From: an uncultured Acidobacteriota bacterium | GTDB lineage: Bacteria > Acidobacteriota > Vicinamibacteria > Vicinamibacterales > 2-12-FULL-66-21 | Length of the DNA: 64,000 bases | Direction of reading: 5' to 3' | Assembly (NCBI GenBank): GCA_963784195.1 | Contig: CAWARA010000013.1 | Location: 104,687-168,686, forward strand | In this document: piece by piece, positions 8,536 through 47,444 of the stretch | How positions within the stretch are numbered: position 1 is the stretch's first letter | Layout of the letters: each line of letters starts with the position of its first letter | Translations under genes and position numbers: made by a program | The notes under the pieces: generated by a model | What the model was told of the DNA's origin: nothing | Database searches by the model: none | What the model saw: only the letters and a program-made list of their open reading frames with translations

Positions 8536-8551
8536 GATGGCCACCTCCCAA

Positions 8552-12909: not shown

Positions 12910-12999
12910 CCGTGGTTCGTCGTGCGTCGCTCGTGGCTCGGAATGCCTCTAGAACGGTATGGGTCTTACGAGCTACGAGCGACGGACCACGAACCACGG
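12910..12999. repeat. Palindromic intergenic repeat, family 1, copy 2
   Basis: ccgtggttcgtcgtgcgtcgctcgtggctcgga ... acgagctacgagcgacggaccacgaaccacgg. Same arm sequence family as 10597-10708. Confidence 0.8.
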
Positions 13000-15780: not shown

Positions 15781-15846
15781 GGGCAGACTTACCTCCCGCG
15801 AACTATAATCGCGTGCTCCCGTATGTAACGCTCTGAGGACTCGACC

Positions 15847-20447: not shown

Positions 20448-20555
20448 GGATTCACGACGGTGTGAACGCGGGTTCATGACGCGGGTTCATACCGGGGTTC
20501 ACGACCGTCTTGAACCCTCGTCGTGAACCCTCGTCATGAACCCCCGCCCTGAACC
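20448..20555. repeat. Palindromic array of ~12-nt GGGTTCAYGAC units, family 3, copy 1
   Basis: gggattcacgac, ggtgtgaacgc, gggttcatgac, gcgggttcatac and cggggttcacgac are followed by the inverted units cgtcttgaaccc, tcgtcgtgaaccc, tcgtcatgaaccc and ccgccctgaacc. The array starts 12 nt after the permease stop. Confidence 0.8.
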
Positions 20556-22707: not shown

Positions 22708-22867
22708 CGTTCCCCCCACAGCTCCGCCTCATCCATCCCTTAGCTGGACCGCGTCCGGCATCACCCTCCTCCGAACGCAACTCTCGGGATCCTGGTGGCG
22801 ATGAAACGACGCCAATCTGTTGCAGATTTGCTATTATCCGGGACGAATTCGCCGATTGGAGGACGAA

Positions 22868-25756
22868 ATGAGCATTCGCTTGATGTGCGTATCGCTCGCC
22901 TTGCTGCTGGGGCTCTCCGGCAGTGCGAGCGCGCAGCTTCAGAGTGGGAACATTTCGGGCACTGTGAGAGACGAACAGGGCGCCGTGCTGCCTGGGGCAG
23001 TGGTCACGCTGGAGGGCACAGGCCCCGTCATCACTTTCACCACGCTGACGGATGGTCAGTATCGGTTCCTGAATCTTCCGCCTGGCAGCTACAAGCTCAC
23101 CGTCGCGCTCAACGGATTCAGCACGGTGATTCGCGAACAGGTCGTCGTGCAGGTCGGTCAGAACGTGGACATCCCGATTGCGATGAAGGTTGCAGCGGTG
23201 GAGGAGTCCGTCACCGTCAGCGGCCAGTCGCCGGTGGTCGACATGAAGCAGATGGGCACGGCCACGAACTTCAGCGCGGACGAGCTGTCACGTGTGCCGA
23301 ACTCGCGCGATCCCTGGGCGCTGCTCCGCACCGTGCCCGGCGTGTCGCTGGACCGCGTGAACATCGCGGGCAACGAGACCGGCCAACAGTCGTCGTTCGT
23401 GTCGAAGGGCGGGCGTCAGGGAGACGCCGTGTGGACGATGGACGGAATTCCCATTACCGACATGGCGACCAATGGCGCGTCGCCGACCTACTTCGACTAC
23501 GACGCGTTCGACGAGATCCAAATCTCCACGAGCGGCAACGACATCCGCCAGGCCACCGGCGGCGTGGGGCTGAACTTCGTCGTGAAGCGCGGGACGAACC
23601 GCATGCGGGGCACGGCGCGAGGCTACTTCACCGACGAATCGCTCGAGGCGACGAACCTGCCTGACGAGCTGATCGCGCGCGGAATCACCCCCGAGACCGC
23701 CGACCACAACCAGCAGATCTCGGAGTTCGGGATCGACATCGGCGGGCCGATCGTGCGCGAGAGGCTGTTCTATTGGGCTTCGTATGCCAACCAGGACATC
23801 CGGCTGTTCCGGCAGTCTGCCAAGGGTATCGACCGCACGATCCTCAAGACCTACAACGCCAAGGTCAACTGGCAGGCCACCCGGGACGACATGATCAACT
23901 TCCTGTTCTTCAACGGCGACAAGATCAAGAACGGCCGCGCGCCCGGGAACGCGAGCTTCGAGCCAAGCTCGGCGCGGTACAACCAGGGCAACTACTACAC
24001 CGACACCCCCTTGCACGGGCTGTGGAAAATCGAAGACAACCGGATGTTCGGGCCCAATCTGTTCGTGACTGGCAAGTACGCGTACTACAACACGGGCTTC
24101 ACGCTGGAATCGATCGGGAGCCTGGATGAACAGATGGGGATCAGCGCCCTGCAGGGCCAGACGTTCGGATCGACCAACGCGCAGTATTTCCTGCGGCCGC
24201 AGCACACGGTCAACGTCGACGCGAACCACTTCCGGACGTTTGGATCGCAGCGGCACAACTTCAAGTTCGGCATGGGCTGGCGTCGCACGGACGCGTACGC
24301 GCGGACGATCTACCCCGGCAACAACATCGTGGCGTACGAGAACTCAGCGACGAACTTCCGCGCGAGAGTCTATCGTGAGGGCGTAGGCACGAACCGCTCG
24401 CTCTATCTCAACTTCTATGTCGGCGATACGATCAGCGTGGGCCGCGCGACGTTCGATGTCGGGCTCCGTTACGATCGTCAATGGGGCTACGCGCTGGCCA
24501 GCAGCACGCAGGCCAACGAGGCTTTCCCGAACCTTGTACCAGGCATCACCTTCACCGGCTACGATGCGCCGTTCCACTGGAACAACCTGACGCCTCGCGT
24601 GGGCGTGACCTACGCGCTCGACGAGAGCCACAAGACAATTCTCCGCGCCAGCTTCAGTCGCAACGCGGGGCAGCTCTCGGGGATCAACGGCAACATCGGG
24701 CACGCGAACCCCAGCTCGAACGCGGGATGGGCGGAATATCCGTGGACTGACCTCAACGGCGATCATCTCGCCCAGACGAACGAGGTCAACACCGCCGCCG
24801 CCATCCTGGCGTCCGGGAATGGCTTCAACACGGCGAACCCGGCGGGGGTCACCTCTGCCAACCTGATCGATCCGGACTTCAGGGCACCAGTCGGCACCGG
24901 CGTGGTCCTCGGTTTCGACCGGGAGCTCATGCCCAACCTGGCGGTGCAGGTGAACTACACGTACGGCCGGACAACCGATCACCCGTACACGCCGTTCATC
25001 GGGTTGACGGCGGCCGACTATGCGCCCGGAACGCCGCTCGTCGGGACGCTCCCCGACGGCAGCACGTTCAACGTCCCGACCTACATCCCCAATGCCGACA
25101 AGGTCGCGGCGGTCGGCGGCGGCCGGTTGCTCACCAACTGGCCCGACTACTACACGTACTTCCACGGGATCGAGTTCTCGGTCAACAAGCGGATGTCGGA
25201 CCGCTGGATGATGCGGCTCGGTGCCTCCTTCAGCAATCCGCGGGAGCACTATGGGCAGGATCCGCCGGTCACCGACAACGGGCAGCCGACGCGGTCGGAC
25301 ACCTTCCCGCTCATCTCGGGTGGACAGTATGCGCCGCGGAGCGCCGGCAGCGGCTCCGGCGACGTGTTCGTGAATCAGCGCTGGAACTTCAACCTGAACG
25401 GCGCCTACCAGCTCCCATGGGACATGCAAGCGGCGGGGAACCTGTTTGCCAAGCAAGGTACGCCCTTCCCGATTTTCCGGAACGCTTCCCTCGGCCGCGA
25501 TGGGACCGTCCGGACGCTGGTCTCACCGGAGCTGGATTCGACCCGGTTCGACAACCTCTGGAACCTCGACCTGCGCTTTTCCAAGGATTTCAGGTTCGGG
25601 CGCGGGTCCTTCCAGATCATCGCGGACCTGTTCAACGTGTTGAACGCCAACACGGAGATCACCCGCGAGCGGAACATCGACGCGACCAACTTCCAGTTCC
25701 TGTCGTCGAACCTGAGCCCGCGAGTACTGCGGTTCGGCGCGCGCTTGAACTTCTAG
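22868..25756 (+). CDS. Carboxypeptidase-regulatory-like domain / TonB-dependent receptor-like outer-membrane protein
   Basis: GGAGGA RBS before ATG 22868 and signal peptide MSIRLMCVSLALLLGLSGSASAQ. The N-terminal CarboxypepD_reg pattern is GTVRDEQGAVLPGAVVTLEG...YRFLNLPPGSYKL. A long beta-barrel-like body ends ..LRFGARLNF (terminal aromatic). Confidence 0.9.
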   Translation: MSIRLMCVSLALLLGLSGSASAQLQSGNISGTVRDEQGAVLPGAVVTLEGTGPVITFTTLTDGQYRFLNLPPGSYKLTVALNGFSTVIREQVVVQVGQNVDIPIAMKVAAVEESVTVSGQSPVVDMKQMGTATNFSADELSRVPNSRDPWALLRTVPGVSLDRVNIAGNETGQQSSFVSKGGRQGDAVWTMDGIPITDMATNGASPTYFDYDAFDEIQISTSGNDIRQATGGVGLNFVVKRGTNRMRGTARGYFTDESLEATNLPDELIARGITPETADHNQQISEFGIDIGGPIVRERLFYWASYANQDIRLFRQSAKGIDRTILKTYNAKVNWQATRDDMINFLFFNGDKIKNGRAPGNASFEPSSARYNQGNYYTDTPLHGLWKIEDNRMFGPNLFVTGKYAYYNTGFTLESIGSLDEQMGISALQGQTFGSTNAQYFLRPQHTVNVDANHFRTFGSQRHNFKFGMGWRRTDAYARTIYPGNNIVAYENSATNFRARVYREGVGTNRSLYLNFYVGDTISVGRATFDVGLRYDRQWGYALASSTQANEAFPNLVPGITFTGYDAPFHWNNLTPRVGVTYALDESHKTILRASFSRNAGQLSGINGNIGHANPSSNAGWAEYPWTDLNGDHLAQTNEVNTAAAILASGNGFNTANPAGVTSANLIDPDFRAPVGTGVVLGFDRELMPNLAVQVNYTYGRTTDHPYTPFIGLTAADYAPGTPLVGTLPDGSTFNVPTYIPNADKVAAVGGGRLLTNWPDYYTYFHGIEFSVNKRMSDRWMMRLGASFSNPREHYGQDPPVTDNGQPTRSDTFPLISGGQYAPRSAGSGSGDVFVNQRWNFNLNGAYQLPWDMQAAGNLFAKQGTPFPIFRNASLGRDGTVRTLVSPELDSTRFDNLWNLDLRFSKDFRFGRGSFQIIADLFNVLNANTEITRERNIDATNFQFLSSNLSPRVLRFGARLNF

Positions 25757-25810
25757 CGAGGCGGCGTCGAGAAGGGCGGTCTTTCCGACTGCCCTGTGTC
25801 GTGATGAGTG

Positions 25811-25841
25811 CGGCCGGTCAGAAATGACCGGCCGTTTTTTT
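25811..25841 (+). terminator. Rho-independent terminator
   Basis: cggccggtca / gaaa / tgaccggccg forms a 10-bp stem followed by ttttttt, 55 nt after the stop at 25756. Confidence 0.75.
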
Positions 25842-25851
25842 GGGCGCCGCG

Positions 25852-26615
25852 CTACTTCGTCACCGTGATCCGGAATGGCATCGTGTAGTAGCCCTCGTTG
25901 ACTTTCACGACCTTGCCGTTCGTGGTGGGAACCGAGACGAGTTCGGCGATATCCGAGTCACCGGCTTCGATGACCCACTGGTTGGTTGCGGTTCGCGTGA
26001 CAGTGAGATGAGGTTGAGCCAGGATGCAGGTCCTGGATCGAAGCGAACAGTCCACAGGAGAGTCGCGCCCCGAGGGATCGGCGAAGTTCAGGAACATACG
26101 CGCAGGTGTCGACTGACCGACAGGAATACTCGCGAACCCGTTCGGAAGATCGGTGCCCATCGCGTCGACTGGATACGTGCGCGGCCCGTGCGGTGTTTCG
26201 TCCGAAATGACCGTGGGGAAATTCTTGCGACAATTCCCGGCCCCAACACATGGGGCGATGCCGTTCGGGCGCGTTAAAATCGAGCGAGATCGTGCGTCCG
26301 AGACCTGATTTGAGCACGAACAAGAACAGGTTCCCCTCCGTCAAGTAGCCGCCCATGTTGGCAGCCTGACCCTCCTGGGTAGTGGCGCTGCCCGCAGGCG
26401 TCGTGCCGCGGTACGGGCCGAAGATATCGCCTTCGATTTGATCGGGGGTGAAGCAGTCGGCACCGAGAGGGACAGCGGAATTCCGCCGTGACCGGAAACA
26501 GCGTGTTTCCCCCGCCCCCGCCTCCCGGTTTCCCGCCTTTCTGGGCGTGAATCGAACTAACAAGAACGATAGCCAGTAGGGAAGACGCGAGCGCAAACCG
26601 GTGCGAACCAAGCAT
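25852..26615 (-). pseudogene. Secreted hypothetical protein read in three frames (two frame changes)
   Basis: The signal peptide MLGSHRFALASSLLAIVLVSSIHAQKGGKPGGGGGGNTLFPVTAEF is in one frame. AVPLGADCFTPDQIEGDIFGPYRG...ISLDFNAP is in a second. NGIAPCVGAGNCRKNFPTVISDETPHGPRTYPVDAMGTDLPNG...YYTMPFRITVTK is in a third. The first change lies in or next to a C/G homopolymer-rich run (26470-26530) and the second near 26255-26270. Confidence 0.6.
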
Positions 26616-26777
26616 TGATGACTCCTGACGTGTTTATAATGGGCTAATGGCGCAGTCCATCACGAAGACCGTGCCCTCCTAGAGGATGACGCGAGGATCT
26701 CAGGGAGACTTGCTCACCGCTAAGTGGAGGGGGGCGTGGACTGAGCCCTTGACTGGTGGCGCCCGTAGCAGCAGGCT

Positions 26778-27075
26778 GTGGGCGGGCATGGGACCGAGTT
26801 GAGGGCGCCGGACGTGACGACACTGCTGCACGCCTGGAGCGCCGGAGACACCGGGGGCGCGCGACCTGCTTGTAGCGCTGGTCTACCAGGACCTCCACGG
26901 GCGCGCGGCGGCGTACCTACGTCGGGAGCGGCGCGACCACACGCTGCAGCCGACCGCCCTTGTGCACGAAGCCTACCTTCGACTGATCGATATCTCCGTG
27001 GCAACCGCTGAGCGCGACTGGCAGGCCGCGCGCGCACGGCTTTACGCGGCCTTGAAGGGTGAGCGACCCCGATGA
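26778..27075 (+). pseudogene. ECF sigma factor remnant (module 1): frameshift plus ~293-bp internal deletion
   Basis: ..APDVTTLLHAWSAGD runs in one frame. After a shift at the G-run near 26848 it continues DLLVALVYQDLHGRAAAYLRRERRDHTLQPTALVHEAYLRLID and joins directly to ISVATAERDWQAARARLYAALKGERPR*. The region present in module 2 (30879-31171: rest of sigma-2, linker, most of sigma-4) is missing. Confidence 0.75.
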
Positions 27076-29983
27076 TGCCAGATCGTTGGCGAGACGTGAC
27101 GGAGATCTTTCATACCGCCCTGGCGCGGGATGCCGCGACGCGCGGGGCGTATCTCGCAGAAACCTGCCGGGATGACGTGTCGCTGCGGGCCGACGTCGAT
27201 GCGCTGCTCGCGGCTCATGACGAGGCTGGATCATTCGGCGCAACGCCCGTCTTCATGCCAGCCGATTCGCCCCGCCTCGAGCCTGGAACCACGCTGGGTC
27301 TGTATCGCATCGAGGCACTGCTCGGCGCCGGTGGCATGGGCGAGGTCTACCGCGCCAGGGACACGCGTCTCGAACGCGACGTTGCCGTGAAGGTCCTGCC
27401 GCCGGAGGCGGCCGACGCCGAGCGCCGGCAGCGCTTTGCCCGCGAGGCCCAGATCATCGCCTCGCTCAACCACCCCAACATCGTCACCCTCCATTCCGTC
27501 GAGCAAAGCGGCGACCATCACTTCCTGACGATGGAGCTCGTGGACGGGAAGACCCTGCGCGAGCTGATTCCGTCCGGCGGCCTTCCCGCTCGATCGGCTG
27601 CTCGACATCGCCATTCCGCTCGCCGATGCGGTGGGCGCGGCCCACGCACGGGGCGTTGTTCATCGCGACCTCAAGCCTGGCAACGTGATGGTCACGCCGG
27701 ACGGACGGGTCAAGGTGCTCGACTTCGGGCTCGCGAAGCTGAAGCCGGCCGAGCGCGATCTCCGGCATGCCGGGCACAGTGGTGGCAGATGACATCACCG
27801 ATGACAAGCGCGTGCTGGGCACGGCCGCCTACATGTCGCCGGAACAGGCTGAAGGACGCGAGGTCGATCACCGATCCGACATCTTCTCGCTGGGGGTGCT
27901 GTTATACGAGCTGGCCGTCGGACGGCGGCCCTTCGCGGGAGGATCGACCGGGTTTATGCTCTCGTCCCTCCTCAGGGACACTCCGCCGGCTGTGACGGAG
28001 CTGAGACCGGAGCTGCCGCCCGATCTCGGACGCCTCATACGGCGCTGCCTCGCCAAAGACCCGAACCGCCGATGTCAGTCTGCGCTCGACCTGAGGAACG
28101 AACTGGAGGAGATCAGGACAGGATCTGGAGTCCGGCAGCTATCGAAGCCGTTGCGCAGGCGCGGCCGTGCCCGCGCCGCCTCGGCGGTTGAAGCGCCGAC
28201 TGTGGCTGGCCGTAGCTGCGATCCCGCTGGCAAGCGCCGTCGCCATTGGGTATGTCGCCTGGGCAAGGGGGCGGGGAGTAGCGCTGCACGACCGCTACGG
28301 CTCACCGTGCAGCCTCCGTCTGGCGTTCGCCTGACAGAATCGGCTGCGGCGCCCTGGCTGGCGATCTCGCCCGACGGTCAGTGGATGGCTTTTCACGGCG
28401 TCAGCAACGATCCGAATCGGAGTGGTCTGTACCTCCGGTCGGCAAGCGACCTCGAGCCGAGGCTTGTTATCGGTGGACGACCTGGTTCGACCTTCACCCC
28501 CTCTTTCTCACCCGACAGCCAATGGCTGGCCTATTGGGCGGACGGCGCGATTTGGAAGATCCCGGTTACGGGGGGCGAACCCGTACGTATTTGCGAAGCT
28601 AAGGCGACTCACTTCGTCCGGGTTGGGGTGACGATGGCACGATCGTCCTCACGAACAGGACGGACGGCGGGCTCTGGCGCGTTTCGGATCGGGGGGGCAG
28701 CCGGGCGTCCTATCGCCTCCCGTCGCGGGAGAGCGACACTTTAGTGCGCATGTCCTCCCCGGCAGCGAAGCGGCTCTGTTTACGATCAGCGCGGGCGTGG
28801 GGCGAAGCACAACGAATGATTGCCCTCGTGTCGTTGAAGACCGGCGCCATCCGCAAGTTGTTCGCGGGCAGTTCCCCTCGATACGTCCGCGGCGGGTTTC
28901 TGGTCTTCCGGCGGCTCGACGCCGTGCATGTCGCGCCGTTCGATCTCGCGCGACTGGAGGTGACCGGTGATCCGCGGCCCGTGCTCCAAGACGTCAATTA
29001 CTACCCCTACACTGGAGCTTCAGCGTTCGATGTCTCGAGTGACGGATCGCTGATCTACACGCCGGGGGCTCCGCGAACGGAGAACTCCGAGCTGGTCTGG
29101 CTCGATCGCCAGGGTCGCACCGAAGCTGCTGGCGGTCGAGCGCCAAGCCTACAGTAGAGCGGAACTGGATCGCCGAAGGTCAACGCGTCGCAGTGCACAT
29201 CAACTCGAGCCTGAATGATGGTGATCTCTCTGTGTACGACATCCGCGCCAGGAGCTGGACTCGTCTCACACAGGGGCTTGAGACGCTCAGCTCGATTGTC
29301 TGGTCTTCGGACGGACAGTGGATCTTCTTCAGTTCGAAACGGTCAGGATACCCCAAGCTGTTCCGCATCCGCGCCAATGGCGGGGCGCCCGAGCCGCTCA
29401 CGGACGGCTCGCATTGACGGAATAGGCTCTGAGCTTCTACGGCAATGTGGTGCTGTTCGCGCGCCAGGCATAGAGAGTGCAGGCGTTGTCGCCCTCTGAC
29501 GCTGACGCTCGACCCTCGAGGAGCGCCGGAGCGGCTCCCGCACATCGAAGTCATAAAGGTCCAAAAAATTAAGGAAAGTTCTCCCAGACGGCCACTGGGT
29601 AGCGTACGTCGTCGCTCGGGCGCAGCAGATCTTCGTGCAGCCGTTCGAAGGTTCGAAAGAATCCCGACGTCACTACGTCGCGGCTAGGGATGGGGCCCTC
29701 GCTGGAGTCGAGACGGCCGGAGTCTGTTCTTTCGTCGAGACCGAGAGATCTGGCAGGTTCCTGTCCACACGGGGCGGGGGCGGTAACGACTTCCAGGCCG
29801 GCACACCAGAACTCCTGATCAGGCACGATTCGCTGATCTCCGCGAGGCGACGGCCTGGTCGAGCCGTCGTCGGACGGCCAGCGGTTTCTTCTGGTCCGAA
29901 CCCCGGAGCGGGAGCGGAAGGAGCGACTCCTCGTGTATGTTCCGAACTGGCTGGACGAAGTGAAGGAGGCGTTGAAACGTTAG
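27072..29983 (+). pseudogene. Ser/Thr kinase - TM - TolB-like beta-propeller gene (module 1), multiply frameshifted
   Basis: ATGA stop/start overlap with the sigma remnant. The kinase domain (GAGGMGEVYRARD ... [26 protein letters not shown]) is split by shifts near 27586 (one extra nt vs module 2) and 27760. Propeller blades (ISPDGQW.AF, FSPDSQWLAYWA) are spread over all three frames to TAG 29981-29983. Confidence 0.8.
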
Positions 29984-30068
29984 TTCATCACGAGGGTTCA
30001 ACCACGAGGGTTCATTCCGAGAGTTAAATAAAGGAGGTTCACCGCGTCGGTTCATTACTGTCACGAAC
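29983..30068. repeat. GGTTCA-unit array, family 3, copy 2 (degenerate)
   Basis: gttcatcacgag, ggttcaaccacgag, ggttcattccgag, agttaaataaagga, ggttcaccgcgtc and ggttcattactgtcacgaac lie directly after the module 1 stop. Confidence 0.65.
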
Positions 30069-30296
30069 TGCAGCACCGGAGTCGGACCTTCTCGGTGATC
30101 TCTTCGGAGGATGGCGGATTCTCGCTGAGCTAGAGAGTGTGCAGGACCTCGTGGATGAGAGCCACACGAGTGCGCGGAACTGTCGCGCAGGTTTGCAGGA
30201 CCGAGCGGCGCAAACGAACACGACCGACTCCTGGTGCTGTGAACGCCTGGGTGTCTCCGCACGCTGATTCTGGCTTCCATCCAGAACGATGACAAA

Positions 30297-30607
30297 CGGA
30301 TAAGATAGAGATATATAAGATGAGAGATGTGAGTGTGATGAGAGAAGATTGTGTTGATATTGTAGTATTTGATAGTGAGATTATTAGAGATTATAATTTT
30401 TTTATTTTGTGACGCACAAATATGAAAAAAAAAGATGATGAGATATAGAGATAAGTATGATTAGAGAAGTGAGAAGAATTAACTAGAAAGTAAATGAGAT
30501 ATAATGAATGATAATGAAAGATGATGTTGATAATAAAAGTTTTAGATATTATTGAGAGAAATACTATAATAGATTAAAAAATAGCTTTCCAAAGAAAGAT
30601 AAGAAAA
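30297..30607. other. C-depleted AT-rich island (24% G+C) of unknown nature
   Basis: Hand count of 30301-30600 gives A133 T94 G65 C8. C-free runs are 30298-30412 (115 nt), 30418-30482 (65 nt) and 30484-30563 (80 nt). No ORF exceeds 30 codons. The flanks are G+C-rich. Confidence 0.9.
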
Positions 30608-30691
30608 TCTGGGCAGAGTTACTCAACGCCGAACGACTGTCTAGACTGATGGAGGCTGTCGCAGCAGGATTGGACCGATGAAGGGGCGCCG

Positions 30692-31255
30692 GTGAGCGCG
30701 ACAGACGTGACGACGCTGCTGCACGCCTGGAGCGCTGAGGACGCCGGAGCGCGAGACCAGCAAAGCGCTGGTACCAGGACCTACACGGGCGCGCGGCGGC
30801 ATACTGCGCAGAGAGCGACGAGACCACACAATGCAGCTGACCGCTCTAGTACACGAAGCCTACCTTCGACTGATCAATCAAAAACGAACAGCGTGGCAGA
30901 ATCGTGCGCAGTTTCTGAGCGTCGCGTAAGAGATGATGAGGCGAATGCTCGTGGACTACGCGAGGCGCGCCAAGATGGCCAAGCGGTCGGGCTGATGGGT
31001 TCAGGTCACGCTGGACGAGCGAGTGATCGGTGCTTGTTCACCGCACGTCGATGTCCTGATGCTGGATCAGGCGCTGACAGGCTGGCGGAGTTCGATCCCA
31101 GCAAGAGCCGGATCGCTGAACTAAATTTTTTAGGTGGCCTATCATTAGAAGAGATGGCGCACGTGCTGGATATCTCCGTGGCAACGGCGGAGCGAGACTG
31201 GAAGGCCGCGCGCGCATGGCTATAAGAGGCCTTGAAGGGCGAGCGACCGCGATGA
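30692..31255 (+). pseudogene. ECF sigma factor pseudogene (module 2): indels and three in-frame stops
   Basis: VSATDVTTLLHAWSAEDAGARD is followed by small indels at 30750-30810. The sequence continues ..RRERRDHTMQLTALVHEAYLRLINQKRTAWQNRAQFLSVA*EMMRRMLVDYARRAKMAKRSG*WVQVTLDE.., with TAA at 30927 and TGA at 30993 in the same frame. After a shift near 31078 it reads LAEFDPSKSRIAELNFLGGLSLEEMAHVLDISVATAERDWKAARAWL*, with TAA at 31223. This is the TIGR02999-like ECF pattern. Confidence 0.8.
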
Positions 31256-34167
31256 CACCGGATCGGTGGCGACAGGTGACGGAGATCTTTCATACTGCGC
31301 TGGCGCGCGACGTGACGATGCGCGGGGCTATCTCGCAGAAACCTGCCGGGATGACGAGTCGCTGCGGGCCGACGTCGAGCGGCTTCTGGCGGCTCATAGC
31401 GACCCGAGGCCGCATCATTCGGCGCGACGCCCGTCTTCGCGCAGAGCGATTCGCCCCGACTCGAGCCTGGAAAGACGCTGGGTCTGTATCGCATCGAGGC
31501 GCTGATCGGCGCCGGTGGTATGGGCGAGGTCTACCGCGCCCGGGACACGCGTCTCGGACGCGACGTGGCGGTGAAGGTGCTGCCGCGCGAGGCGGCCGAC
31601 GTCGAGCGCCAGCAGCGGTTCGCTCGCGAGGCACAGATCATCGCTTCGCTCAACCACCCCAACATCGTCACCCTCCATTCGGTCGAGCAAAGTGGCGACC
31701 ATCACTTTCTGACGATGGAGCTTGTAGAGGGCAAGACGCTGCGCGAGCTGATTCCGCCTGGCGGCCTGCCGCTCGATCGGCTGCTCGACATCGCCATTCC
31801 GCTCGCCGATGCCGTGGGCGCGGCCCACGCGCGCGGCGTTGTCCATCGCGACCTCAAGCCAGGCAACGTCATGGTCACGCCTGACGGACGAGTCAAGATG
31901 CTCGACTTCGGGCTCGCGAAGCTGAACAACGGTTCCCGCGATCGCCGGCGATGTGACCACGGCGGCAGAGCATGAGATCACCGAAGACAACCGCGTGCTG
32001 GGCACGGTCGCCTACATGTCGCCGGAGCAGGCTGAGGGGCACGACGGTCGATCACCGGTCCGACATCTTCTCGCTCGGGGTGCTGTTCTACGAGCTGGCC
32101 GTCGGCCAGCGGCCCTTCGCAGGCGAATCGACCGCGCTGCTGCTGTCGTCCATCCTCAAGGACACACCGTCGTCAGTGACGGAGCGCCGACCGGATCTGC
32201 CGCCCGAGCTCGGACGCCTCGTGCGGCGCTGCCTCGCCAAAGACCCGAACCGCCGATACCAGTCTGCGCTCGACCTGAGGAACGAGCTGGAAGAGATTCG
32301 GCAGGATATGCAGTCCGGCGATTTGAAGGCGAGCAGCAGCAAAGCTGTGGCTGCCGAGCGTGGCCCATTGAGACGCTCGCTGTGGTTCGTCATGAGCCTG
32401 ATGCGGCTTGCCGGCACGGCGGTGTCGCCTATCTCGCGTGGCCGAAACCGGCGACGCAGGCGCGCACGCAGAGACTACGAACCACCGTGGAGCCTCCATC
32501 AGGCGTTCAAATGCCGCGACAAAACGCGGTGCCGATCCTCGCGATCTCGCCCGACGGTCAATGGGTCGCGTTTCACGGCGTCAGCAGCGATCGAAGTAGA
32601 AGCGGTCTGTATCTCCGGTCGTTGAGCGAGCTCGAGCCCAGGTTTGTGAGGGAAGGAGAGGGGTCGTCGCCGTTCTTCTCCCCTGACAGCAAGTGGCTCG
32701 GCTTCTGGGCGAATGGATCGATCTGGAAGATGCGGGTGGATGGCACCCAACACGAGCCGATCTGCGATGCGCCAAACCAGCTTCGCGGTGCGAGCTGGGG
32801 TGACGATAACAGGATCGTCTTTACGGACGGCGCGGACGGCGCCCTCCGGCGCGTCCGGGCCGACGGGGGAACACCGACGGTCCTGACCAGTCCCACCGCG
32901 GACGTCAGAATGTATTACTTCCCGCACGTCCTGCCGGGCAGTAAAGCCGCGTTCGTGATGCTGCTCACGAAGGATCCAAAGACGATCGGACTGGTGTCCC
33001 TGGAGACGGGCGCGATTCTCCACACGTTGTTCGCGGGCAGCACCCCGCGATTTGTGCAGGGATTCCTGGTGTTCCGCAGGTTCGAGACCCTGCACGCCGC
33101 GCCCTTCGACCTCACAAGGCCTGAGGGTGACAGGTGAGTCGCAGAGGGTGCTCGAGGGTGTCAGTTTCAATCCAGGTGGCTCGGAGACCTCGGCATTCGA
33201 TGTCTCGATGACGGGAGCGCTCGTCTTCACACCACCGCTGCCGCGGGTTGCAGAGGCGGAGTTGGTCTGGCTCGACGGTCAGGGACATACTCAAGACCGG
33301 TCGTCGCCGATCGCAGGGATTACAGTCTCCCTTCTCTCGACCCCGACGGGCGGCGTGTCGCGGTCCATGTTGCGAGTGCAGGCGACCGAGGACGTCTGGA
33401 CGTACGACATCGCCACCGGGAGCGGCACGCCAGATACGCGCGGACAAATGACGGGCGGTGAGATTGTCTGGTCTTCCGACGGACGATGGATCGTGTTTTC
33501 GCAGAAGCCGGGCACTCCCACTCTGTTCCGCATCCGCGCGGACGGCGGCGAACCGCAACAACTGTCAAGAGATGCCGAGTACGGCTCGACAAGAAAGCGC
33601 ACGATGACGCGAACAGCGTTCACGGCAACGTGCTGATGTTTTCGCGCCAGGTTGGGCCCGACGACTATGACCTCCTGACGATGCCGCTCGAGCCTCCTGG
33701 CGTGCCGCAGCCGTTCCTCGGAAGTGACGTGAACACCGTCGATGCGCAGATTTCGCCCGACGGACGCTGGGTCGCGTACATCGCTCTCGATGCGACTGGG
33801 CGGCAGATTCTTGTGCGCTCGTTCTCCGACCCTGCGCGGGGTCCAGTCCATGTGGCCTCGGAGGCTCGCAGGGCCCGGTGGAGTCGGCGACGGACGGAGG
33901 CTGTTTTATAGCAAACTCAAAGGCGGTGCGATCTGGAGCGTTCAGGTCGCACCGGCTGCGACCGGGGCAGACTTCCAGGCGGGGCCCCCGGTGCTCGCGT
34001 CAGGCAGTGTCACCCTCGATCCTGAAATCGAGGCCAACTTTCCCGAGCCCTCGCTGGACGGCACCCGGTTTCACGTCGTCAAGCGGCCGCATCCAGGGCG
34101 CACCGAGCCGCAACTCTTTTATGTCCCGAACTGGCTGGCCGAGGTCAGGGAGGCGTTCAAACGTTAG
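31252..34167 (+). pseudogene. Ser/Thr kinase - TM - TolB-like beta-propeller gene (module 2), multiply frameshifted
   Basis: ATGA overlap with the sigma pseudogene. MTPDRWRQVTEIFHTALARD.., GAGGMGEVYRARD...[52 protein letters not shown] and propeller blades (ISPDGQWVAFHG, FSPDSKWLGFWA, ISPDGRWVAYIA) lie in different frames. Shifts fall near 31325, 31400, 31945, 32040, 32430, 33125 and later. The gene ends at TAG 34165-34167. Confidence 0.8.
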
Positions 34168-34210
34168 TTCATCACGAGGGTTCATTCCGAGGGTTCATAC
34201 GAAGGTTCAC
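34166..34210. repeat. GGTTCA-unit array, family 3, copy 3
   Basis: gttcatcacgag, ggttcattccgag, ggttcatacgaa and ggttcac lie directly after the module 2 stop. Confidence 0.65.
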
Positions 34211-34221
34211 CCAGTGGAGCC

Positions 34222-34380
34222 CTATCTAGCAAAATACTCCGTCGGATCGACAATCGCGTCGATGACCGCCGGCCGATCCACGCTCAGCGCTTCGCGCACC
34301 GCGGCGTCGAGTTGCTCCATCGTCTCCACCCGCCGCGCCCACGCGCCCAGCCCGGCAGACGCTGCGGCGAAATCCATGGT
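34222..34380 (-). pseudogene. Duplicated 3'-terminal fragment of the TPP-dependent enzyme gene
   Basis: The translation ..DFAAASAGLGAWARRVETMEQLDAAVREALSVDRPAVIDAIVDPTEYFAR* nearly equals the C-terminus of the 35332-36966 gene. The nucleotide match 34234-34380 vs 35364-35510 has ~7 mismatches in 147 nt. No N-terminal part is present. Confidence 0.8.
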
Positions 34381-34576
34381 GGGGAGTCTACTCGCCGCGG
34401 GCGCGAGCGCAGCGAGAGTATGAGCGGAGGCCGTTTTCCGGCTCGCGGAAGTCGGCCTCGGACGGACAAGGCCGGCGCTGCGTCGGCAGCCGCATAGCCG
34501 CGCGGGACAGCGCGGGAGCTCCGCGTGGACACCCGGCAATCAGATACGTTGGGAGTTGGGAAAGGTGACGGTGTAG

Positions 34577-35331: not shown

Positions 35332-36966
35332 TCACGTCGCGCGTGACGCTGGCTCCCTGGGGAAGTACTCGGCCGGATCGACAACCACGTCGATGACCGC
35401 CGGTCGATCCACGCTCAGCGCTTCGCGCACCGCGGCGTCGAGCTGCTCCATCGTCTCCACCCGCCGCGCCCACGCGCCCAGCCCGGCAGACGCTGCGGCG
35501 AAATCCACGGATCCATAACGGACGCCAAGCGTCGGGTATCCCCGCCGCTGCTGCGACGCATCGATCAGGCTCAGGCTGCTGTCGTTGTAGACGACGGTCA
35601 CGAAGTGCAGGCGCTCGCGGATGCACGTCTCGATCTCGCCGAGTGTCATGCTGAACCCGCCGTCGCCGATCGTGCAGAGAATCGGACGGTCCGGGAACTG
35701 CAGACGGGCGGCCATGGCGCCTGGCATGCTGTAGCTCATCGCCGAAAGGCCGTTCGACTCGAAGAAGGTCAGTGGCTCGTAACTGGTCCAGGCCTGCGAC
35801 GTAATCATCTTCACGGACCCGACGTCGGTGACGAGCACGGTGTCGCGCGGAAAGAGCTCGCGCAGCCGGAGCGTCAGCTCGTAGCCGGAGAGACCGCGGA
35901 GCGGCGCCGCCGGACGGAGCGCGGCATCCAGGCCGCTTCGGAAACTGCAGCGATCCTCGGGCGTCCAGTCGTAGGGACCGAGTCGGGCGCGGCCGAGGGT
36001 TGCGAGGAGCTCGTTGACGTCGCCGATTGCCTCCGCGGCCGGCCGGAACTCGGCGTGCGCGATGGACATGGGGCCAAGCGACACGATCCGATCGGTGTCG
36101 TGCCAAAGCTTGTCCGACTCTACCGGCTCGAAGCCGACGCCGACGAGGAGGTCCGCCCGCGCGAAGCATTCGAGCACGACGCTGTCGGCGGAAACGCCGC
36201 CGCATACGCCGTAGAAGAGCGGATGATCTTCGGGCAACATGCCCTTCGCCTTCGGCGTCACGAACACCGGGACGCCGAGACGATCCACGAACTCGCGAAC
36301 AGCTGGAGCGTCGGTGTGCGGGTTGAGGTCGAGACCGAGAATCACGATCGGCCGGCGTGCGGTCTGCAGCCTGGTGACGATTCGGTCGATCGCATCAGGT
36401 TCGTGAACGCCGCCCGTCAGAAACCCCGGCGAAAACCGGCCAGTGACGCGATCCTCGGCGCGAGCGACGTCGCTCGGCAGCGCCAGGTGCACGGGGCCCA
36501 TGCGCGGCGCGACCGCAGCTGCGAGTGCGCATCTGACCTTCGCTTCGGTATCCTCGCCGTCCAGCGTCAGCGCCAGCTTGGTAAACGGCCGATACACGGC
36601 ATTCAGATCGAGATCCTGATGCGTGGCGACGCGCGTGGCCGTTCGAGCGAGGGTCGCGGTGATGGCGACGAGCGGCGATCGATCGAGGTAGGCGTTCGCG
36701 ACGCCGAGGGTCATGTTGACGGCGCCGGGACCGAGCGTCGCCACGCAGACGCCAGGCCGGCGCTGAATCTGTCCAGTGACGTCGGCCATGAACGACGCCG
36801 TCGCCTCGTGCCGTGTCAGCAGAAAGTCGATGCCCTCCCGGCGGGCGGCATCCATGAAATCGAGAATCTCGCCGCCGGGAAGGCCGAACATCCGGGTAAT
36901 CCCCGCCTCACGCAGCGCACGCGCCAGCAGTTCCGCCGTCGTCGGCATCCGCCCGGTCACTCTCAT
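35332..36966 (-). CDS. Thiamine-pyrophosphate-dependent enzyme (acetolactate synthase large-subunit-like)
   Basis: 544-aa ORF. TAELLARALREAGITRMFGLPGGEILDF is the N-terminal TPP pyrimidine-binding domain. GDGGFSM...NN is the C-terminal TPP/Mg motif. The start may be ATG 36948 instead of 36966. Confidence 0.9.
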   Translation of the reverse strand: MRVTGRMPTTAELLARALREAGITRMFGLPGGEILDFMDAARREGIDFLLTRHEATASFMADVTGQIQRRPGVCVATLGPGAVNMTLGVANAYLDRSPLVAITATLARTATRVATHQDLDLNAVYRPFTKLALTLDGEDTEAKVRCALAAAVAPRMGPVHLALPSDVARAEDRVTGRFSPGFLTGGVHEPDAIDRIVTRLQTARRPIVILGLDLNPHTDAPAVREFVDRLGVPVFVTPKAKGMLPEDHPLFYGVCGGVSADSVVLECFARADLLVGVGFEPVESDKLWHDTDRIVSLGPMSIAHAEFRPAAEAIGDVNELLATLGRARLGPYDWTPEDRCSFRSGLDAALRPAAPLRGLSGYELTLRLRELFPRDTVLVTDVGSVKMITSQAWTSYEPLTFFESNGLSAMSYSMPGAMAARLQFPDRPILCTIGDGGFSMTLGEIETCIRERLHFVTVVYNDSSLSLIDASQQRRGYPTLGVRYGSVDFAAASAGLGAWARRVETMEQLDAAVREALSVDRPAVIDVVVDPAEYFPREPASRAT

Positions 36967-39893: not shown

Positions 39894-40027
39894 CCTTCAC
39901 CGCCCTGAAGCAGACCCTCAGATTGTATGCGGCGGGCCGACGAGCGCCAACCTGATTAACCGTTTCCGCCCTTCGTTTCGACCGCTCAATCTTCGAGCAT
40001 GGGGTAAGATTCGCTCACCCCTTGCCT

Positions 40028-40651
40028 ATGGCAGTTGACCGTTCGGGAAGCGACCCACTCAGGCCGGCCGTGAGGCAGGCGGCGGCGGATCTCGAATCGA
40101 CTGCCCGCCTGATTGAACGCGCTCAGGCAGGCGATGAGGAATCCCTCGACCGTCTCCTGGCCCGCCATCTTCCACGACTCCGGCGCTGGGCCCGAGGCCG
40201 ATTGCCGAAGTGGGCACGCGATATCGCGGAGACCGATGACCTGGTGCAGGACACCCTGCTCCAAACGTTCAAGAGAATCGAACACTTCGAGTGTCGTGGC
40301 GTCGGCGCGCTGCAGGCGTACCTGCGCGAGGCGATACTCAATCGCGTCCGCGACGAGCTTCGCAAGAAGGGGCGGCGGCCGATCGCAACCGAGCTCGACG
40401 GGCTCGAGGTCCACCACGGGCTGTCACCGCTCGAAGAAGCCATCGGGCGCGAGTCCATCGCGCGGTACGAGCAGGCGCTGGCGGCGTTGAATCCGGACGA
40501 TCGGGAGACGATCGTATGCCGCGTCGAGATGGGGTATACGCACGAGGAACTCGCCGACGCTTTGGGCAAGCCGAGCGCGGACGCCGCACGTAAGGCGGCG
40601 CAGCGGGCGCTCGTCCGGCTGGTTCAGCAGATGAATCTGCCGGGTAAGTAG
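40028..40651 (+). CDS. ECF-type RNA polymerase sigma factor
   Basis: ATG 40028, or TTG 40022 in the track. Sigma-2 (DDLVQDTLLQTFKRIEHFE) and sigma-4 (ETIVCRVEMGYTHEELADALGKPSADAARKAAQRAL) regions are present. No anti-sigma gene follows; a kinase gene follows instead. Confidence 0.85.
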   Translation: MAVDRSGSDPLRPAVRQAAADLESTARLIERAQAGDEESLDRLLARHLPRLRRWARGRLPKWARDIAETDDLVQDTLLQTFKRIEHFECRGVGALQAYLREAILNRVRDELRKKGRRPIATELDGLEVHHGLSPLEEAIGRESIARYEQALAALNPDDRETIVCRVEMGYTHEELADALGKPSADAARKAAQRALVRLVQQMNLPGK

Positions 40652-40734
40652 TCCGTCCCGACTTGGTGCGTGTCCGATTCTGTCCGGCGCGGCGTTTCAT
40701 CCCGAAGGTTGGGAGCCAAACGAGAGCCTGAGAG

Positions 40735-43276
40735 ATGCCAGCCAGCGAGCAACTACTCGACGACCTCGCCGGTGCCGTCCTCGATGACGCCTCGGTCGAT
40801 TGGGCTGCAGCCGAATCAAGCGCGGGGGCGGCCGCCCGGCCGCTCATTCGGGACCTGCAGCTCGTGGCATCCATCGTCAGCTTGTTCCGCGACGACCCGC
40901 CGCTGGAGTCCTTGCCTGGGTCGCCTGAGACAGGACAAGAGACCGCCGATCTCGGGCGTTGGGGCCACCTCCGCTTGCTCGAGCGCGTCGGGCGTGGCTC
41001 TTTCGGCGAAGTGTTCCGCGCCTGGGACCCGCGGCTCGCACGCGAAGTCGCGCTGAAGCTCCTGCCCGTCGAGCCTTCCTCGAACCCGCTCGCCGAAAGC
41101 GAAACCATTCAGGAAGGCCGGCTGCTCGCCAAAGTCCGGCATCCGAACGTCGTCACCGTCCACGGCGCGGAACGGATCGGCGATCGGGTTGGCGTGTGGA
41201 TGGAATTCGTCCGCGGCTCCACGCTCGAGCAACTGCTCCAGCGCGGCACGGTCTTTCGCGCGGCCGATGTCATCGGCATCGGCGTGGAGCTTTGCCGCGC
41301 GGTCTCTGCCGTGCACGCGGCCGGCCTGCTGCATCGCGATATCAAGGCTCAGAACGTGATCCGCACCGAGGACGGCCGCGCCGTGCTGATGGACTTCGGC
41401 ACCGGCAAAGAGTTCGCTGATTCTTCGTCCGATCTGACGGGCACTCCGCTGTGTCTGGCGCCGGAAGTGCTTGCCGGAAGGCCGGCGACGGTGCAAAGCG
41501 ATATCTACAGCCTGGGTGTGCTGCTTTATCACCTTGTGACAGGTACGTATCCGGTCCTGGCCCGAACGATTCGAGACCTGCGACGTGCGCACGAGCAGCA
41601 CGAACGTGTCACGGTTCGCACGGCGCGATCCGATGTGCTGCCGGCTCTCGCGCGCGTCATCGACCGCGCCAGCGATCCACAGCCGGAGCGTCGCTACGAG
41701 ACGGCCGATGCGCTCGCGCGAGACTTGACCGCCCTGCAACGGCGTCCGGGTATCGTGCGGCTTGCCTACCAGGCGACCGCGGCGGCTGCCGTTCTCCTCG
41801 TCGCGGTGTCGGCGCTGGAAGTTCGTGCTTGCCGGTACGGAGACCGCCGAGGCCCCAGCAGTCAACTCGCAAGCCTGTTTGCCGGAGCCCCAAGTCCCGT
41901 CGCGCGCCCAGTCATCGCGGTCCTGCCGTTCAAGAACTTCAGCAGTGAGCCCGGCCGCGACCTGCTGGTGGAGAGCGTCACGACCCGTCTCATCCATCAA
42001 CTTGCGAACATCGATGGGCTGCAGGTGAAGTCGCAGCACTCCTCGTTCCTGCTCAAGGACAAGCCGCATTTCCGACGTGGGCAAGCTGCTGGGCGTGAAT
42101 CTGGCCGTCGAGGGAGGCATGCAGATCTCCGGGGACAGGCTGCTGATCCACGCCGCGCTGGTGTCGGTCACCGAGGATCGGCAGCTTTGGTCCAACAAGG
42201 TCGAGCGTCATCTCACGTCCGAGGGCGACGTCGTCGGCGCAGTGGAGGAGGTGACCAGGACGATTGTCAACAAGCTTCGCCTCAAGCTGCCCCCAACGCA
42301 GCGCAGATATGACATCGACATTCCTACGTACGAAACATACTTGAGGGCTCGCGCGCTGCGCGATGCTCGCGCCAGAAAAGCTCGTGAGGCGATTCCCCTG
42401 TTCGAAGAGGTCATTCGGAAGGACCAGTCGTACGCGCCGGCGCTGGCCGCGCTCGCGGCCACATACGGGTACCTCGGCTTCTTCTACCCGGACGCATCCC
42501 TTCCTCCGATTTATATGCCCCACAGTGAAGCCGTGGCTCTGGCGGAGCCGTTGGCCATAAAGGCGCTCGAGATAGATCCGATGCTGGCCGAGGCGCACGC
42601 GGCGATGGGGTTCATTCATTCATACGCGCGGCGCTGGGCAGACGCCGAAGCGTCGTTCCGCCGCGCAATTGAATACGAGCCCACCCGCACGGCGGTGTAC
42701 GGGGATTTCGTACTGTCCACCCTGTTGCCGTGGGGAAGGCTCGACGAGTCCCTCAGTACGATGCAGAAAGCGCTTCAGGCCGATCCCTTGTCGCTGGACG
42801 TCCGGCGCGTCCTGGCAGGTGTGCAAATCAGCGCCGGCCTGTATGACGACGCGATTGAGAATTGCCAGCGAGTCCTCGACGAGCAGCCGAACTTCCCAAT
42901 CGTGGCCTTGTTCCGTGCCCGCGCGCTGCTGTTCAGAGGGCGGAGGGCTGAAGCGCTCGACTGGTTCAACGAGTACGCTGTTTCCCGAAAGTCTGCTGCG
43001 GGGCAAGGCGAAGGCGTGAAAGGCTGGATCTATGCGATCACCGGCCAGCGCGCGGAGGCCGAAGCGATCGCGGCACGGTTCGCTCACTTCCCGCAGCGGC
43101 AGGCGGAGATCTATGGTTTCCTGGGAGATTACGACCGCGCGCTGGAGGCCCTCGAGCGGCTGGCGGTCCTGAACCCAGGTCGTGCCGGGTGGCATCTTAG
43201 CCAGCCCGAACTTGCGTCACTACGTGGCGACCCACGGGTCGAGGCGTTCCGCCGGAAGCTGGGGTTTCCTCAATAG
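40735..43276 (+). pseudogene. Ser/Thr kinase - TM - TPR protein, one frame change
   Basis: The kinase domain (GRGSFGEVFRAWD, HRDIKAQNVI, DFGTGK, GTPLCLAPE), the TM and ..VIAVLPFKNFSSEP..SSFLLKDKPHF are in frame 1. DVGKLLGVNLAVEGGMQISGDRLLIHAALV.. plus TPRs to 43276 are in frame 2. The shift lies near 42066-42076 (catttccgacgtggg, apparently one nt missing). Confidence 0.8.
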
Positions 43277-44162: not shown

Positions 44163-44501
44163 GGACGGAGGGGACGGGGGTCACGGAACAGGCTTCAACT
44201 CGGAGAAACGGAGGAACGGAGGCGCCAAGTCAGAAGGCTGCGCGGGGTGGTCACCGGGTCCGCCGATGCCGCCGCTCGCGCGGCGGGCGATCAATCGACC
44301 CCCCACGGACACAAGCTGCTCCCGCACCACAGGCAGCTTGTGTCCGCGGGGGGTCGATTGATCGCTCGGCCCGGCCGATGGCCGGGCCGGCATCGGCCGC
44401 TGACCGGTGACTTGCCTGCGATGGCTTATCGGCGTTTCTCCGTTCCTCCGTGTCTCCGTTTTTGAAGCTTGTTCCGTGTTCTCCGTCTCCTCCGTCCCCC
44501 C
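44163..44501. repeat. ~340-bp nested-hairpin repeat, family 4, copy A
   Basis: Outer arms ggaggggacggggg..ggaacaggcttcaactcggagaaacggaggaacggagg pair with ctccgttcctccgtgtctccgtttttgaagcttgttccg..ctcctccgtcccc. The inner 32-bp stem spans 44288-44364 with 1 mismatch. A 9-bp hairpin ggcccggcc/gat/ggccgggcc is also present. Confidence 0.85.
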
Positions 44502-47127: not shown

Positions 47128-47444
47128 GGGAGGGAGGGGACGGAGAGGACGGAACGAGCTTCAAAAACGGAGACACGGGGGAACGGAGACGCGCAGAGGT
47201 CGCGCCTGGTGAGCCGATGTCGCCGCGCGCGCGCGGCGAGCGATCGACCGATGCCCCGCGGACACAAGCCGCTCCACCCTTCGCATCCGGCTTGTGTCCG
47301 TGGGGCATCGGTCGATCGCCCGGCCCGGCCGACGGCCGGGCCGACATCGGCTGGTGAGGCGCCGCGCGTCTTCCGTTTTCCTCCGTTTCTCTGTGTCTCC
47401 GTTTTTGAAGCTCGTTCCGTTCCCTCCGTCCCTCCGTTCGGGGG
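47128..47444. repeat. ~320-bp nested-hairpin repeat, family 4, copy B
   Basis: Same architecture and orientation as copy A. The outer arms are gggagggaggggacggagaggacggaacgagcttcaaaaacggagac.. / ..gtctccgtttttgaagctcgttccgttccctccgtccctcc. The inner stem spans 47241-47318 with 1 mismatch. The hairpin ggcccggcc/gac/ggccgggcc is present. Confidence 0.85.

Follow-up and report, generated by a model that had tools for sequence, protein, structure and literature searches.

The damaged sigma-factor and protein-kinase genes in the 64-kb window, as the whole stretch of DNA analysed is called here, are rather probably two old tandem paralogous modules within a dispensable segment, carrying a few real lesions, with the remaining ~45-50 lesions, the damaged patches and a C-free island being consensus errors. 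Module 1 (26.7-30.0 kb) and module 2 (30.6-34.2 kb) share the gene order ECF sigma factor, Ser/Thr kinase with PD40-type propeller, and are real; they are adjacent copies of a common kind of bacterial signalling module that pairs a sigma factor with a protein kinase. The features considered are listed below; lesions are called private when they occur in this record and not in the related loci (numbered with L) used for comparison.

25768..34389, no strand assigned: strain-variable 8.6-kb segment containing both modules and all excess private lesions
25850..26615, minus strand: ~250-aa gene with a signal peptide, divergent from module 1, broken by five private +1 insertions
26778..27075, plus strand: sigma-1 remnant, with one G too many in the run at ~26853-26857 and ~291 nt deleted internally (junction near 26987)
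27072..29983, plus strand: kinase-1, with N-terminal region, Pkinase domain, transmembrane (TM) stretch and PD40-type propeller; orthologue of P0001
29390..29690, no strand assigned: damaged purine-rich patch in kinase-1, with 5-nt and 9-nt insertions, the 9-nt one containing TAA
30040..30600, minus strand: remnant of a 172/174-aa gene between the modules, overwritten at 30290-30600 by a C-free AT-rich island
30692..31255, plus strand: sigma-2, with four private deletions and three in-frame stops in this record
31252..34167, plus strand: kinase-2, a paralogue with a different sensor domain
34222..34539, minus strand: duplicated C-terminal fragment of a TPP enzyme, 34232-34379 matching 35363-35510 at 94.6%

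Layout and age of the two modules

The colinearity of the two paralogous modules, proposed in an earlier note on this DNA, is borne out by BLASTN and by global nucleotide alignment. BLASTN aligns 26989-29114 with 31169-33284 at 76.9% identity over 2169 columns with 96 gap nt; the leader and the sigma 5′ end (26748-26991 and 30641-30878) are 77.9% identical, and the module 3′ ends (29860-30015 and 34044-34198) 75.9%. According to the global alignment, ~293 nt of the module 2 sigma gene (30876-31168) are missing from module 1. The finer features reported in the same note were recovered as well: ATGA stop/start overlaps at 27072-27075 and 31252-31255, GGTTCA(T) repeats 3′ of both stop codons, and a kinase domain and propeller in both copies, the conceptual translations of which match Pkinase (E 4e-49 and 9e-51) and PD40 (E 5e-13 and 4e-8). 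The 4-nt overlap is also found in an intact relative (sigma 7171-7725, kinase 7722-10604). Pkinase and PD40 lie in a single ORF in the homologous kinases P0001 and P0006 and, as this record is written, are split over ORFs.

At the intact syntenic locus, which is single-copy, a TonB receptor, a 248-aa gene, a sigma factor of 184 aa, a kinase of 960 aa and a TPP enzyme are encoded. The tandem arrangement is real, since an independent assembly of a different sample, L088, also shows the two modules in tandem. A scan of metagenome contigs with P0001 returned no close relative (the top match is 36% identical), and the only matches of a conserved 26-mer in a scan of genome contigs were the L001 contig and L005, an unrelated kinase.

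The earlier note envisaged a tandem duplication, with relaxed selection after it as one possible cause of the damage. A recent duplication followed by decay does not hold, as the copies are not mutual closest relatives along their full length: their sensor domains share 50% amino acid identity, whereas the module 1 sensor is 64% identical to that of its single-copy syntenic orthologue P0001. Judged by these identities, the paralogues are old and their sensors long diverged. The N-terminal region and kinase domain behave differently, with 79-85% identity between the copies versus 65-79% between copy 1 and P0001, and dS between the copies is 0.31 in the kinase domain versus 1.19 in the sensor, with which the ~90% nucleotide identity counted earlier in the kinase core is compatible. 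The restriction of the similarity to the 5′ halves (85% at the amino acid level) points to gene conversion, by which the leader, sigma gene and kinase domain have probably been homogenised. Such concerted evolution of the 5′ halves of paralogues is mildly interesting in itself. Conversion had also been listed as one possible means by which the lesions spread; since copy 1 and copy 2 have no nucleotide-level lesion in common, it has not done so. Cross-copy conversion or mis-polishing is not supported as the source of the substitutions in this record, the polarised counts being symmetric.

Lesions in the sigma and kinase genes

None of the four sigma and kinase genes is intact as written, in agreement with the earlier note. 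The record carries ~50 lesions in total, ~45-50 of them private. Three are corroborated in L088, namely the sigma-1 deletion, the extra G in sigma-1 and a -1 frameshift in the TM helix of kinase-2, so that at least one real inactivating mutation is present in each module.

The sigma-1 deletion has an identical junction in L088, which also shares the extra G, while L001 and L002 have other, larger deletions. What is left of the gene matches Sigma70_ECF (PF07638) at positions 3-62 only and stays under the TIGR02999 cut-off, scoring 73 bits over profile positions 3-61. Sigma-1 is a true pseudogene, lost in this lineage by internal deletion and frameshift. The in-frame TAA and TGA codons noticed earlier in copy 2 correspond to three stops in sigma-2 (TAA 30927-30929, TGA 30993-30995 and TAA 31223-31225). 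This gene is intact, with 184-188 aa, in L001, L003 and L088; the L088 orthologue reaches 209.1 bits with TIGR02999 (cut-off 126.15) and E 2.1e-53 with PF07638 over profile positions 4-183. Intact sigma-2 orthologues match TIGR02999 (Sig-70_X6) and PF07638 over the full profiles, whereas both copies of this record fall short, sigma-1 being partial and sigma-2 interrupted by stops and frameshifts.

The earlier count of many frame changes per copy is upheld by protein-to-DNA alignment with intact homologues (17 in kinase-1, 8-12 in kinase-2). For kinase-1, the frameshift-aware alignment with the 960-aa P0001 gives these 17 frame changes and 2 stops, and the list of private indels from a three-way alignment with L001 and L002 gives 19 frameshifting indels and 2 stops. 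Of 17 private single-base indels in this gene, just 2 fall within homopolymers, and there are more insertions than deletions. The changes are concentrated in the patch at 29390-29690, with 61 private changes per 300 nt compared to 3-19 in the other kinase-1 bins.

For kinase-2, 12 frame changes are called against P0001 and 8 against the closer homologue P0006; some protein-guided calls are alignment artefacts in poorly conserved stretches, for example those at residues 796/803, where the nucleotide alignment has no matching indel. The TM-helix lesion at ~32420 (GGG to GG) recurs at position 6610 of L088 and is genuine in this lineage. About nine frameshifting indels are private (31325, 31404, 31927, 32045, 33115, 33290, ~33400, 33587 and 33885). 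Lesions common to this record and L001, at P0001 residues 507, 574/578, 694/697, 828 and 869, were not counted as corroborated, because most of them are absent from L002 and L001 itself is very noisy.

Origin of the private lesions

The segment 25768-34389 is wholly absent from L086, in which the flanks are 98.4% identical, and from L087, and it is half-deleted in L001, L002 and L003: the first two retain sigma-2 and kinase-1, and L003 retains module 2 only. The locus is thus built differently in each strain examined, and lineages have lost different parts of it. The duplicated TPP-enzyme fragment, which is also found in L088, marks a past rearrangement at the segment's right edge.

Private lesions also hit the two unrelated genes of the segment (~250 aa and 174 aa), and the genes flanking it are clean. 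The gene at 25850-26615 has five private insertions and eight private substitutions in this record; its frame is unbroken in L001 and L002 (252 and 250 aa, respectively), and the P0001 contig has a 248-aa gene at the corresponding place. Within the segment, private changes reach ~3.7% and are C-biased, against 0.3-0.4%, strand-symmetric, in the flanks; on the plus strand, 69 of 1059 C but 27 of 1103 G positions are changed (Fisher p = 5e-6). The island at 30290-30600 (GC ~23%, C 2-3%) has no second example in the 64 kb. It is colinear with sequence of normal GC (67%) in L001, L003 and L088, the C positions being occupied by A or T or missing, so that over 300 nt nearly every C is gone, between flanks 98% identical to relatives.

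The excess of frameshifts is not matched by substitutions. Substitution branches of the kinase ORFs are symmetric (84 in this record vs 92 in L003; 64 vs 59 in L002), but the frameshifts number 12 against 4 and 17 against 5, respectively. Fifteen of 17 private +1 insertions lie no more than 3 nt from a polymorphic site, and at 7 of 17 the two alleles of a neighbouring strain polymorphism stand one after the other (e.g., 42067 and 32045).

This pattern bears on two of the causes that the earlier note had put forward. The decay reading stands in that each module carries a real lesion, but not for most lesions, which are private, strand-asymmetric, confined to the segment and free of excess substitutions; the same features favour assembly or polishing errors, another of the listed causes, for most of them. 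Together with the C-free island and both damaged patches, the ~45-50 remaining lesions would then be of technical origin, produced where a metaFlye/Medaka assembly built from Nanopore reads alone had thin, single-stranded or strain-mixed read support. L001 is a Microflora Danica MAG, and that project used Flye (--meta --nano-hq) and one Medaka round, without short-read polishing (PMC12313526). We infer a Nanopore origin for this record from its nearest relatives, and as these MAGs were made with metaFlye/Medaka from Nanopore reads alone, the apparent decay is probably consensus error for the most part.

Private lesions gathered in one segment without accompanying substitutions resemble errors of Nanopore-only metagenome assembly. 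So do the many +1 events on sister contigs in genes intact here: sister assemblies of the same ENA series show the same +1-dominated noise in such genes, the TonB-receptor gene of L001 containing 33 frame events. The likeness is incomplete, since residual errors of this kind usually fall in long homopolymers, outside of which most lesions lie here, and the C-free island is unusual even for such data. The island and patches are mismatch-rich and indel-poor, which is not the textbook R10.4 consensus error. We know of no documented "C-dropout" artefact. Furthermore, additional real lesions are to be expected precisely in modules that already have real ones.

A rival view is that all lesions are real and that an 8.6-kb dead island is drifting to deletion, this strain being the furthest along. 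Real decay is plausible here because the segment is dispensable, being absent or partly deleted in close relatives, and because sensor-domain substitutions are almost neutral in every lineage (omega 0.45-0.63). The three corroborated lesions, the three different sigma-1 deletions in three lineages and a frame break near the TM stretch in every copy of every assembly fit it too. Nevertheless, we regard it as unlikely as an account of every lesion, because the private indels come without additional private substitutions, fall at strain-polymorphic sites and are predominantly single-base insertions outside homopolymers. Bacterial pseudogenes are known for the opposite spectrum, deletion-biased and repeat-associated. 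The module 2 haplotype, moreover, is common to this record and L088, yet the former has ~9 private frameshifting indels and the latter 1-2; the strong strand asymmetry, and a ~300-nt stretch nearly without C beside flanks 98% identical to relatives, also speak against this view.

The asymmetry and the island might instead reflect real, localised, strand-coordinated hypermutation directed at cytosine, of a kataegis-like kind, centred at 30.3-30.6 kb and fading over 1-4 kb. Its agent would be a single-stranded-DNA cytosine deaminase, or a glycosylase with error-prone repair. The presence of C>T, C>A, C>G and C deletions on one strand only, in a gradient around the island, is in line with this, as is a mild 5′-pyrimidine context (YC changed at 8.6-8.9%, RC at 4.4-4.6%). 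However, near-total loss of C over 300 nt, combined with purine-rich and +C insertions elsewhere, corresponds to no known deaminase signature, and the same strand is damaged on either side of the centre. To our knowledge, no cytosine hypermutation process of this kind has been described in bacteria. In the flank of L088, C>X is similarly in excess among private changes (53 vs 29), which suggests a signature of the data type over biology. Such an event therefore seems very improbable, and it is equally doubtful that it inactivated sigma-2, the 174-aa gene and the kinase-1 3′ end all at once; if it had, it would be a bacterial analogue of kataegis striking a dispensable signalling island.

A chimeric mis-join of two strain haplotypes, with a junk island at the join, is the least probable account: the island lies exactly between the modules, and module 1 is nearest to L001/L002 (93%) and module 2 to L088 and L003, but the idea is largely refuted by L088, which has both full modules in unchanged order, and by L001 and L002, which independently show the adjacency of kinase-1, the 174-aa gene and sigma-2.

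Relation to known sigma/kinase pairs and meaning

Each module is predicted to encode a TIGR02999/PF07638-type ECF sigma factor and, in translational coupling through the ATGA overlap, a membrane Ser/Thr kinase, which would carry a periplasmic PD40/TolB-like beta-propeller. ECF43 sigma factors are activated by a Hanks-type Ser/Thr kinase encoded next to them and have Ser/Thr in region 2.2 instead of the DAED motif (PMC8999054). As in the ECF43 pairs EcfP/PknT of Vibrio parahaemolyticus and EcfK/PknS of Xanthomonas citri, the sigma gene overlaps a downstream transmembrane Ser/Thr kinase gene, and region 2.2 has Thr residues in place of an acidic DAED-type motif (...RDHTLQPTALVHEAYLRL...); by inspection, "RRERRDHTLQPTALVHEAYLRL" contains two Thr and no acidic cluster. 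Also in an ECF43-like manner, no anti-sigma gene was found at the locus, the neighbouring ~250-aa and 174-aa genes having no Pfam match. Unlike in those pairs, the sensor is a PD40/TolB-like propeller, and neither sigma/kinase pair is intact as written. The modules thus appear ECF43-like by gene adjacency and region 2.2, a likeness drawn from the genes. With EcfP/PknT and similar ECF43 pairs as the model, a periplasmic cue is presumably detected by the kinase in working relatives, and the kinase would then activate its own sigma factor by phosphorylation.

If most of the lesions are indeed consensus errors, what looks like a cluster of pseudogenes in a long-read MAG can stem from failure of the consensus at one place within strain-variable DNA. 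Pseudogene counts would then come out too high, and work on genome decay would be led astray; such regions can be flagged without reads by comparing shared with private lesions, by the strand symmetry of private changes and by the ratio of indels to substitutions. As to the biology, the locus adds one more pair of ECF-sigma/Ser-Thr-kinase modules to an acidobacterium (a Vicinamibacteria-like MAG) that has many.

Layout of the two modules and their frame breaks

The presence of two colinear sigma-factor/kinase modules with broken reading frames, proposed in the earlier note, is borne out by BLASTN matches, ATGA overlaps, domain hits, and frameshift-aware alignments. The locus and the matches are as follows.

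22820-25756, TonB-dependent receptor gene, left border of the two colinear stretches
26778-29983, module 1 (sigma-1 and kinase-1)
30692-34167, module 2 (sigma-2 and kinase-2)
35332-36966, minus strand, TPP-enzyme gene, right border of the two colinear stretches
26989-29114 (module 1) and 31169-33284 (module 2), BLASTN match, 76.9%, 96 gap nucleotides
26748-26991 and 30641-30878, BLASTN match of leader and sigma 5′ end, 77.9%
29860-30015 and 34044-34198, BLASTN match of the 3′ end, 75.9%

In the global alignment, module 1 lacks some 293 nt of its sigma gene compared with module 2. In both modules, the ATGA tetranucleotide ends sigma and starts the kinase (27072-27075; 31252-31255), and Pkinase and PD40 domains are found in the conceptual translations of the kinases. 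Aligned with P0001, an intact 960-aa homologue, kinase-1 needs 17 frame changes and has 2 stops, and kinase-2 needs 12 frame changes (8 against P0006, a closer homologue); sigma-2 bears 3 in-frame stops and 4 deletions.

Between kinase and sensor, the juxtamembrane/TM stretch (P0001 residues ~349-422, window ~28118-28270 and ~32420) has some frame break in every copy, both in this record (the assembly sequence holding the window) and in the related contigs L001, L002, L003, and L088, with the nucleotides usually differing among copies; this could be coincidence, error-prone sequence, or repeated kinase truncation. Directly 3′ of both kinase stop codons, (GA)GGGTTCA(T) repeats run over 29990-30060 and 34170-34215; they are kept in L001, L002, and L088 and absent from L003. 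Self-BLAST also detects palindromic or inverted-repeat stretches of 80-105 nt (10591-10694, 12910-12999, 20467-20546, and 54489-54579) and, within the same set, the repeat pair 13320-13401 and 54344-54425, all seemingly intergenic, as well as a direct repeat at 48759-48931 (72-nt offset, 88% identical). Two copies of a ~335-nt self-complementary element (44163-44497 and 47129-47441) match one another, and their own reverse complements, at 70-74% identity, and L086 also has one. Two long minus-strand ORFs (3686-5071 and 6367-8661) may hold further frameshifts, because their C-terminal parts resemble out-of-frame sequence.

Structural variation among relatives

The P0001 locus is syntenic, single-copy, and intact, and repaired kinase-1 shares 69% identity with its kinase; the genes at this locus run TonB receptor, 160-aa gene, 248-aa gene (minus strand), sigma (184 aa), kinase (960 aa), 112-aa gene, and TPP enzyme, with a sigma/kinase overlap of 4 nt. 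The comparison set comprised six related contigs of a single ENA series, among them L001 (CAVQAH010000002.1, a Microflora Danica MAG), which differ over a segment of 8.6 kb (25768-34389).

L086, 98.4% identical to the flanks of this record, segment entirely absent
L087, 96% to the flanks, segment entirely absent
L003, 98% to the flanks, only module 2 present, its 188-aa sigma intact
L001 and L002, 84-92% to the flanks, module 1 and intact sigma-2, kinase-2 deleted
L088, 94.5% over the right-hand flank and 85% over module 1, full tandem layout as in this record

Since L088, an independent assembly, has the same layout, and given the locus states of the other relatives, the tandem arrangement is real, and the locus is a structural-variation hot spot. 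A C-terminal fragment of the TPP-enzyme gene is duplicated (34232-34379 and 35363-35510, 94.6% identical), also in L088, and is a genuine scar left by rearrangement at the segment's edge. Elsewhere, a kinase gene (13154-15812) whose 915-aa product has numerous predicted membrane segments is intact here and missing from the 98%-identical L003 as a strain-specific indel, and a third sigma/Ser-Thr-kinase (TPR) module (40022-43276), absent from L086 and L001, has a single frameshift, a private +C at 42067.

Some lesions are also shared with L088: the junction of the sigma-1 internal deletion (...CTTCGACTGA joined to TCGATATC...) is identical, the extra G of sigma-1 at ~26853-26857 is present, and the −1 change (GGG to GG) in the kinase-2 TM helix lies at 32420 here and 6610 there. 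Therefore, one or more genuine inactivating lesions are present in each module. The sigma-1 deletions of L001 and L002 differ from that of this record.

Origin of the private lesions

Changes found in this record and absent from the relatives' contigs are listed below.

kinase-1, 19 frameshifting indels
29390-29690, purine-rich damaged patch in kinase-1, 61 private changes per 300 nt, including purine-rich 5-nt and 9-nt insertions, one with TAA
kinase-2, about 9 frameshifting indels
sigma-2, the 4 deletions and 3 stops
250-aa gene, five +1 insertions
30290-30600, purine-rich island between the modules, GC ~23%, C 2-3%, the sole AT-rich spot in 64 kb (G+C 63-67% elsewhere)

The island aligns colinearly with coding sequence of normal GC, the 172/174-aa minus-strand gene of L001, L003, and L088, and nearly every C in it is changed to A or T or deleted.

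Most lesions, together with the island, are best read as a local assembly or polishing failure in the strain-variable segment, as argued by location, strand bias, substitutions, indel type, polymorphic sites, noise in sister contigs, and assembly method. Private lesions are confined to the segment, and a 12.4 kb flank has 41 private substitutions and 5 gap nucleotides, strand-symmetric. Inside the segment, C sites are privately changed more often than G sites (69/1059 vs 27/1103, p = 5e-6), and the 114 private substitutions of a 3.6-kb module-2 alignment include 62 C>X and 26 G>X. Polarised substitutions in the kinase ORFs are similar in number (84 here vs 92 in L003; 64 here vs 59 in L002) and codon-position profile, while frameshifts in the same comparisons are 12 vs 4 and 17 vs 5; the 250-aa gene has 8 private substitutions alongside its 5 insertions. 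Such indels without excess substitutions argue against real neutral decay, which should add both.

Among the private single-base indels of kinase-1, 2/17 lie in homopolymers and insertions outnumber deletions. In seven of 17 private +1 insertions, the two alleles of a neighbouring strain polymorphism stand in series (at 42067, A in L088, C in L087, and CA here; at 32045, A/C becomes AC), and 15/17 fall no more than 3 nt from a polymorphic site. In sister contigs, genes that are intact here carry the same kind of noise, dominated by +1 events, with 33, 7, and 9 frame events in the TonB-receptor, S9 peptidase, and TPP genes of L001. The project behind L001 used Nanopore reads, Flye --meta --nano-hq, and one Medaka round without short-read polishing, and describes a check of its catalogue for errors associated with Nanopore data (PMC12313526). 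This record probably also derives from Nanopore reads, to judge by its nearest relatives and by its listing in NCBI and ENA.

Some private lesions may nevertheless be real, because the segment is clearly dispensable and sensor-domain substitutions are near neutral in every lineage (omega 0.45-0.63 vs 0.05-0.15 in most flanking genes). Of the earlier interpretations, assembly or polishing error is the favoured one for most lesions, and real pseudogenising events account for a minority. That the island records real strand-specific cytosine hypermutation is very improbable, even though it is mismatch-rich and indel-poor, unlike a textbook consensus error; it is probably a consensus artefact, odd as its pattern is.

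Age and kind of the modules

Amino acid identities of module 1 differ by domain.

Sensor domain, 50% to module 2 and 64% to P0001
Kinase domain, 85% to module 2 and 79% to P0001
N-terminal region, 79% to module 2 and 65% to P0001

Together with the dS between copies (0.31 in the kinase domain, 1.19 in the sensor), these values indicate that the paralogues are older than the divergence from the P0001 lineage, and the 5′ halves of the modules appear to have become homogenised, for which gene conversion is the simplest explanation. The earlier suggestion that gene conversion spread the lesions finds no support, as comparison of copy 1 with copy 2 revealed no common lesion.

By profile matches, sigma is a member of TIGR02999/PF07638. 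As in ECF43 factors, a Ser/Thr kinase gene follows sigma, with no anti-sigma gene there, and on inspection of the sequence, region 2.2 lacks the acidic DAED motif and bears Thr residues instead. A kinase neighbour, absence of DAED, and Thr are hallmarks of the phosphorylation-activated ECF43 factors, such as EcfP/PknT and EcfK/PknS (PMC8999054), so that a candidate likeness to them may be read from the genes. The modules are an ordinary example of a known sigma/kinase kind.
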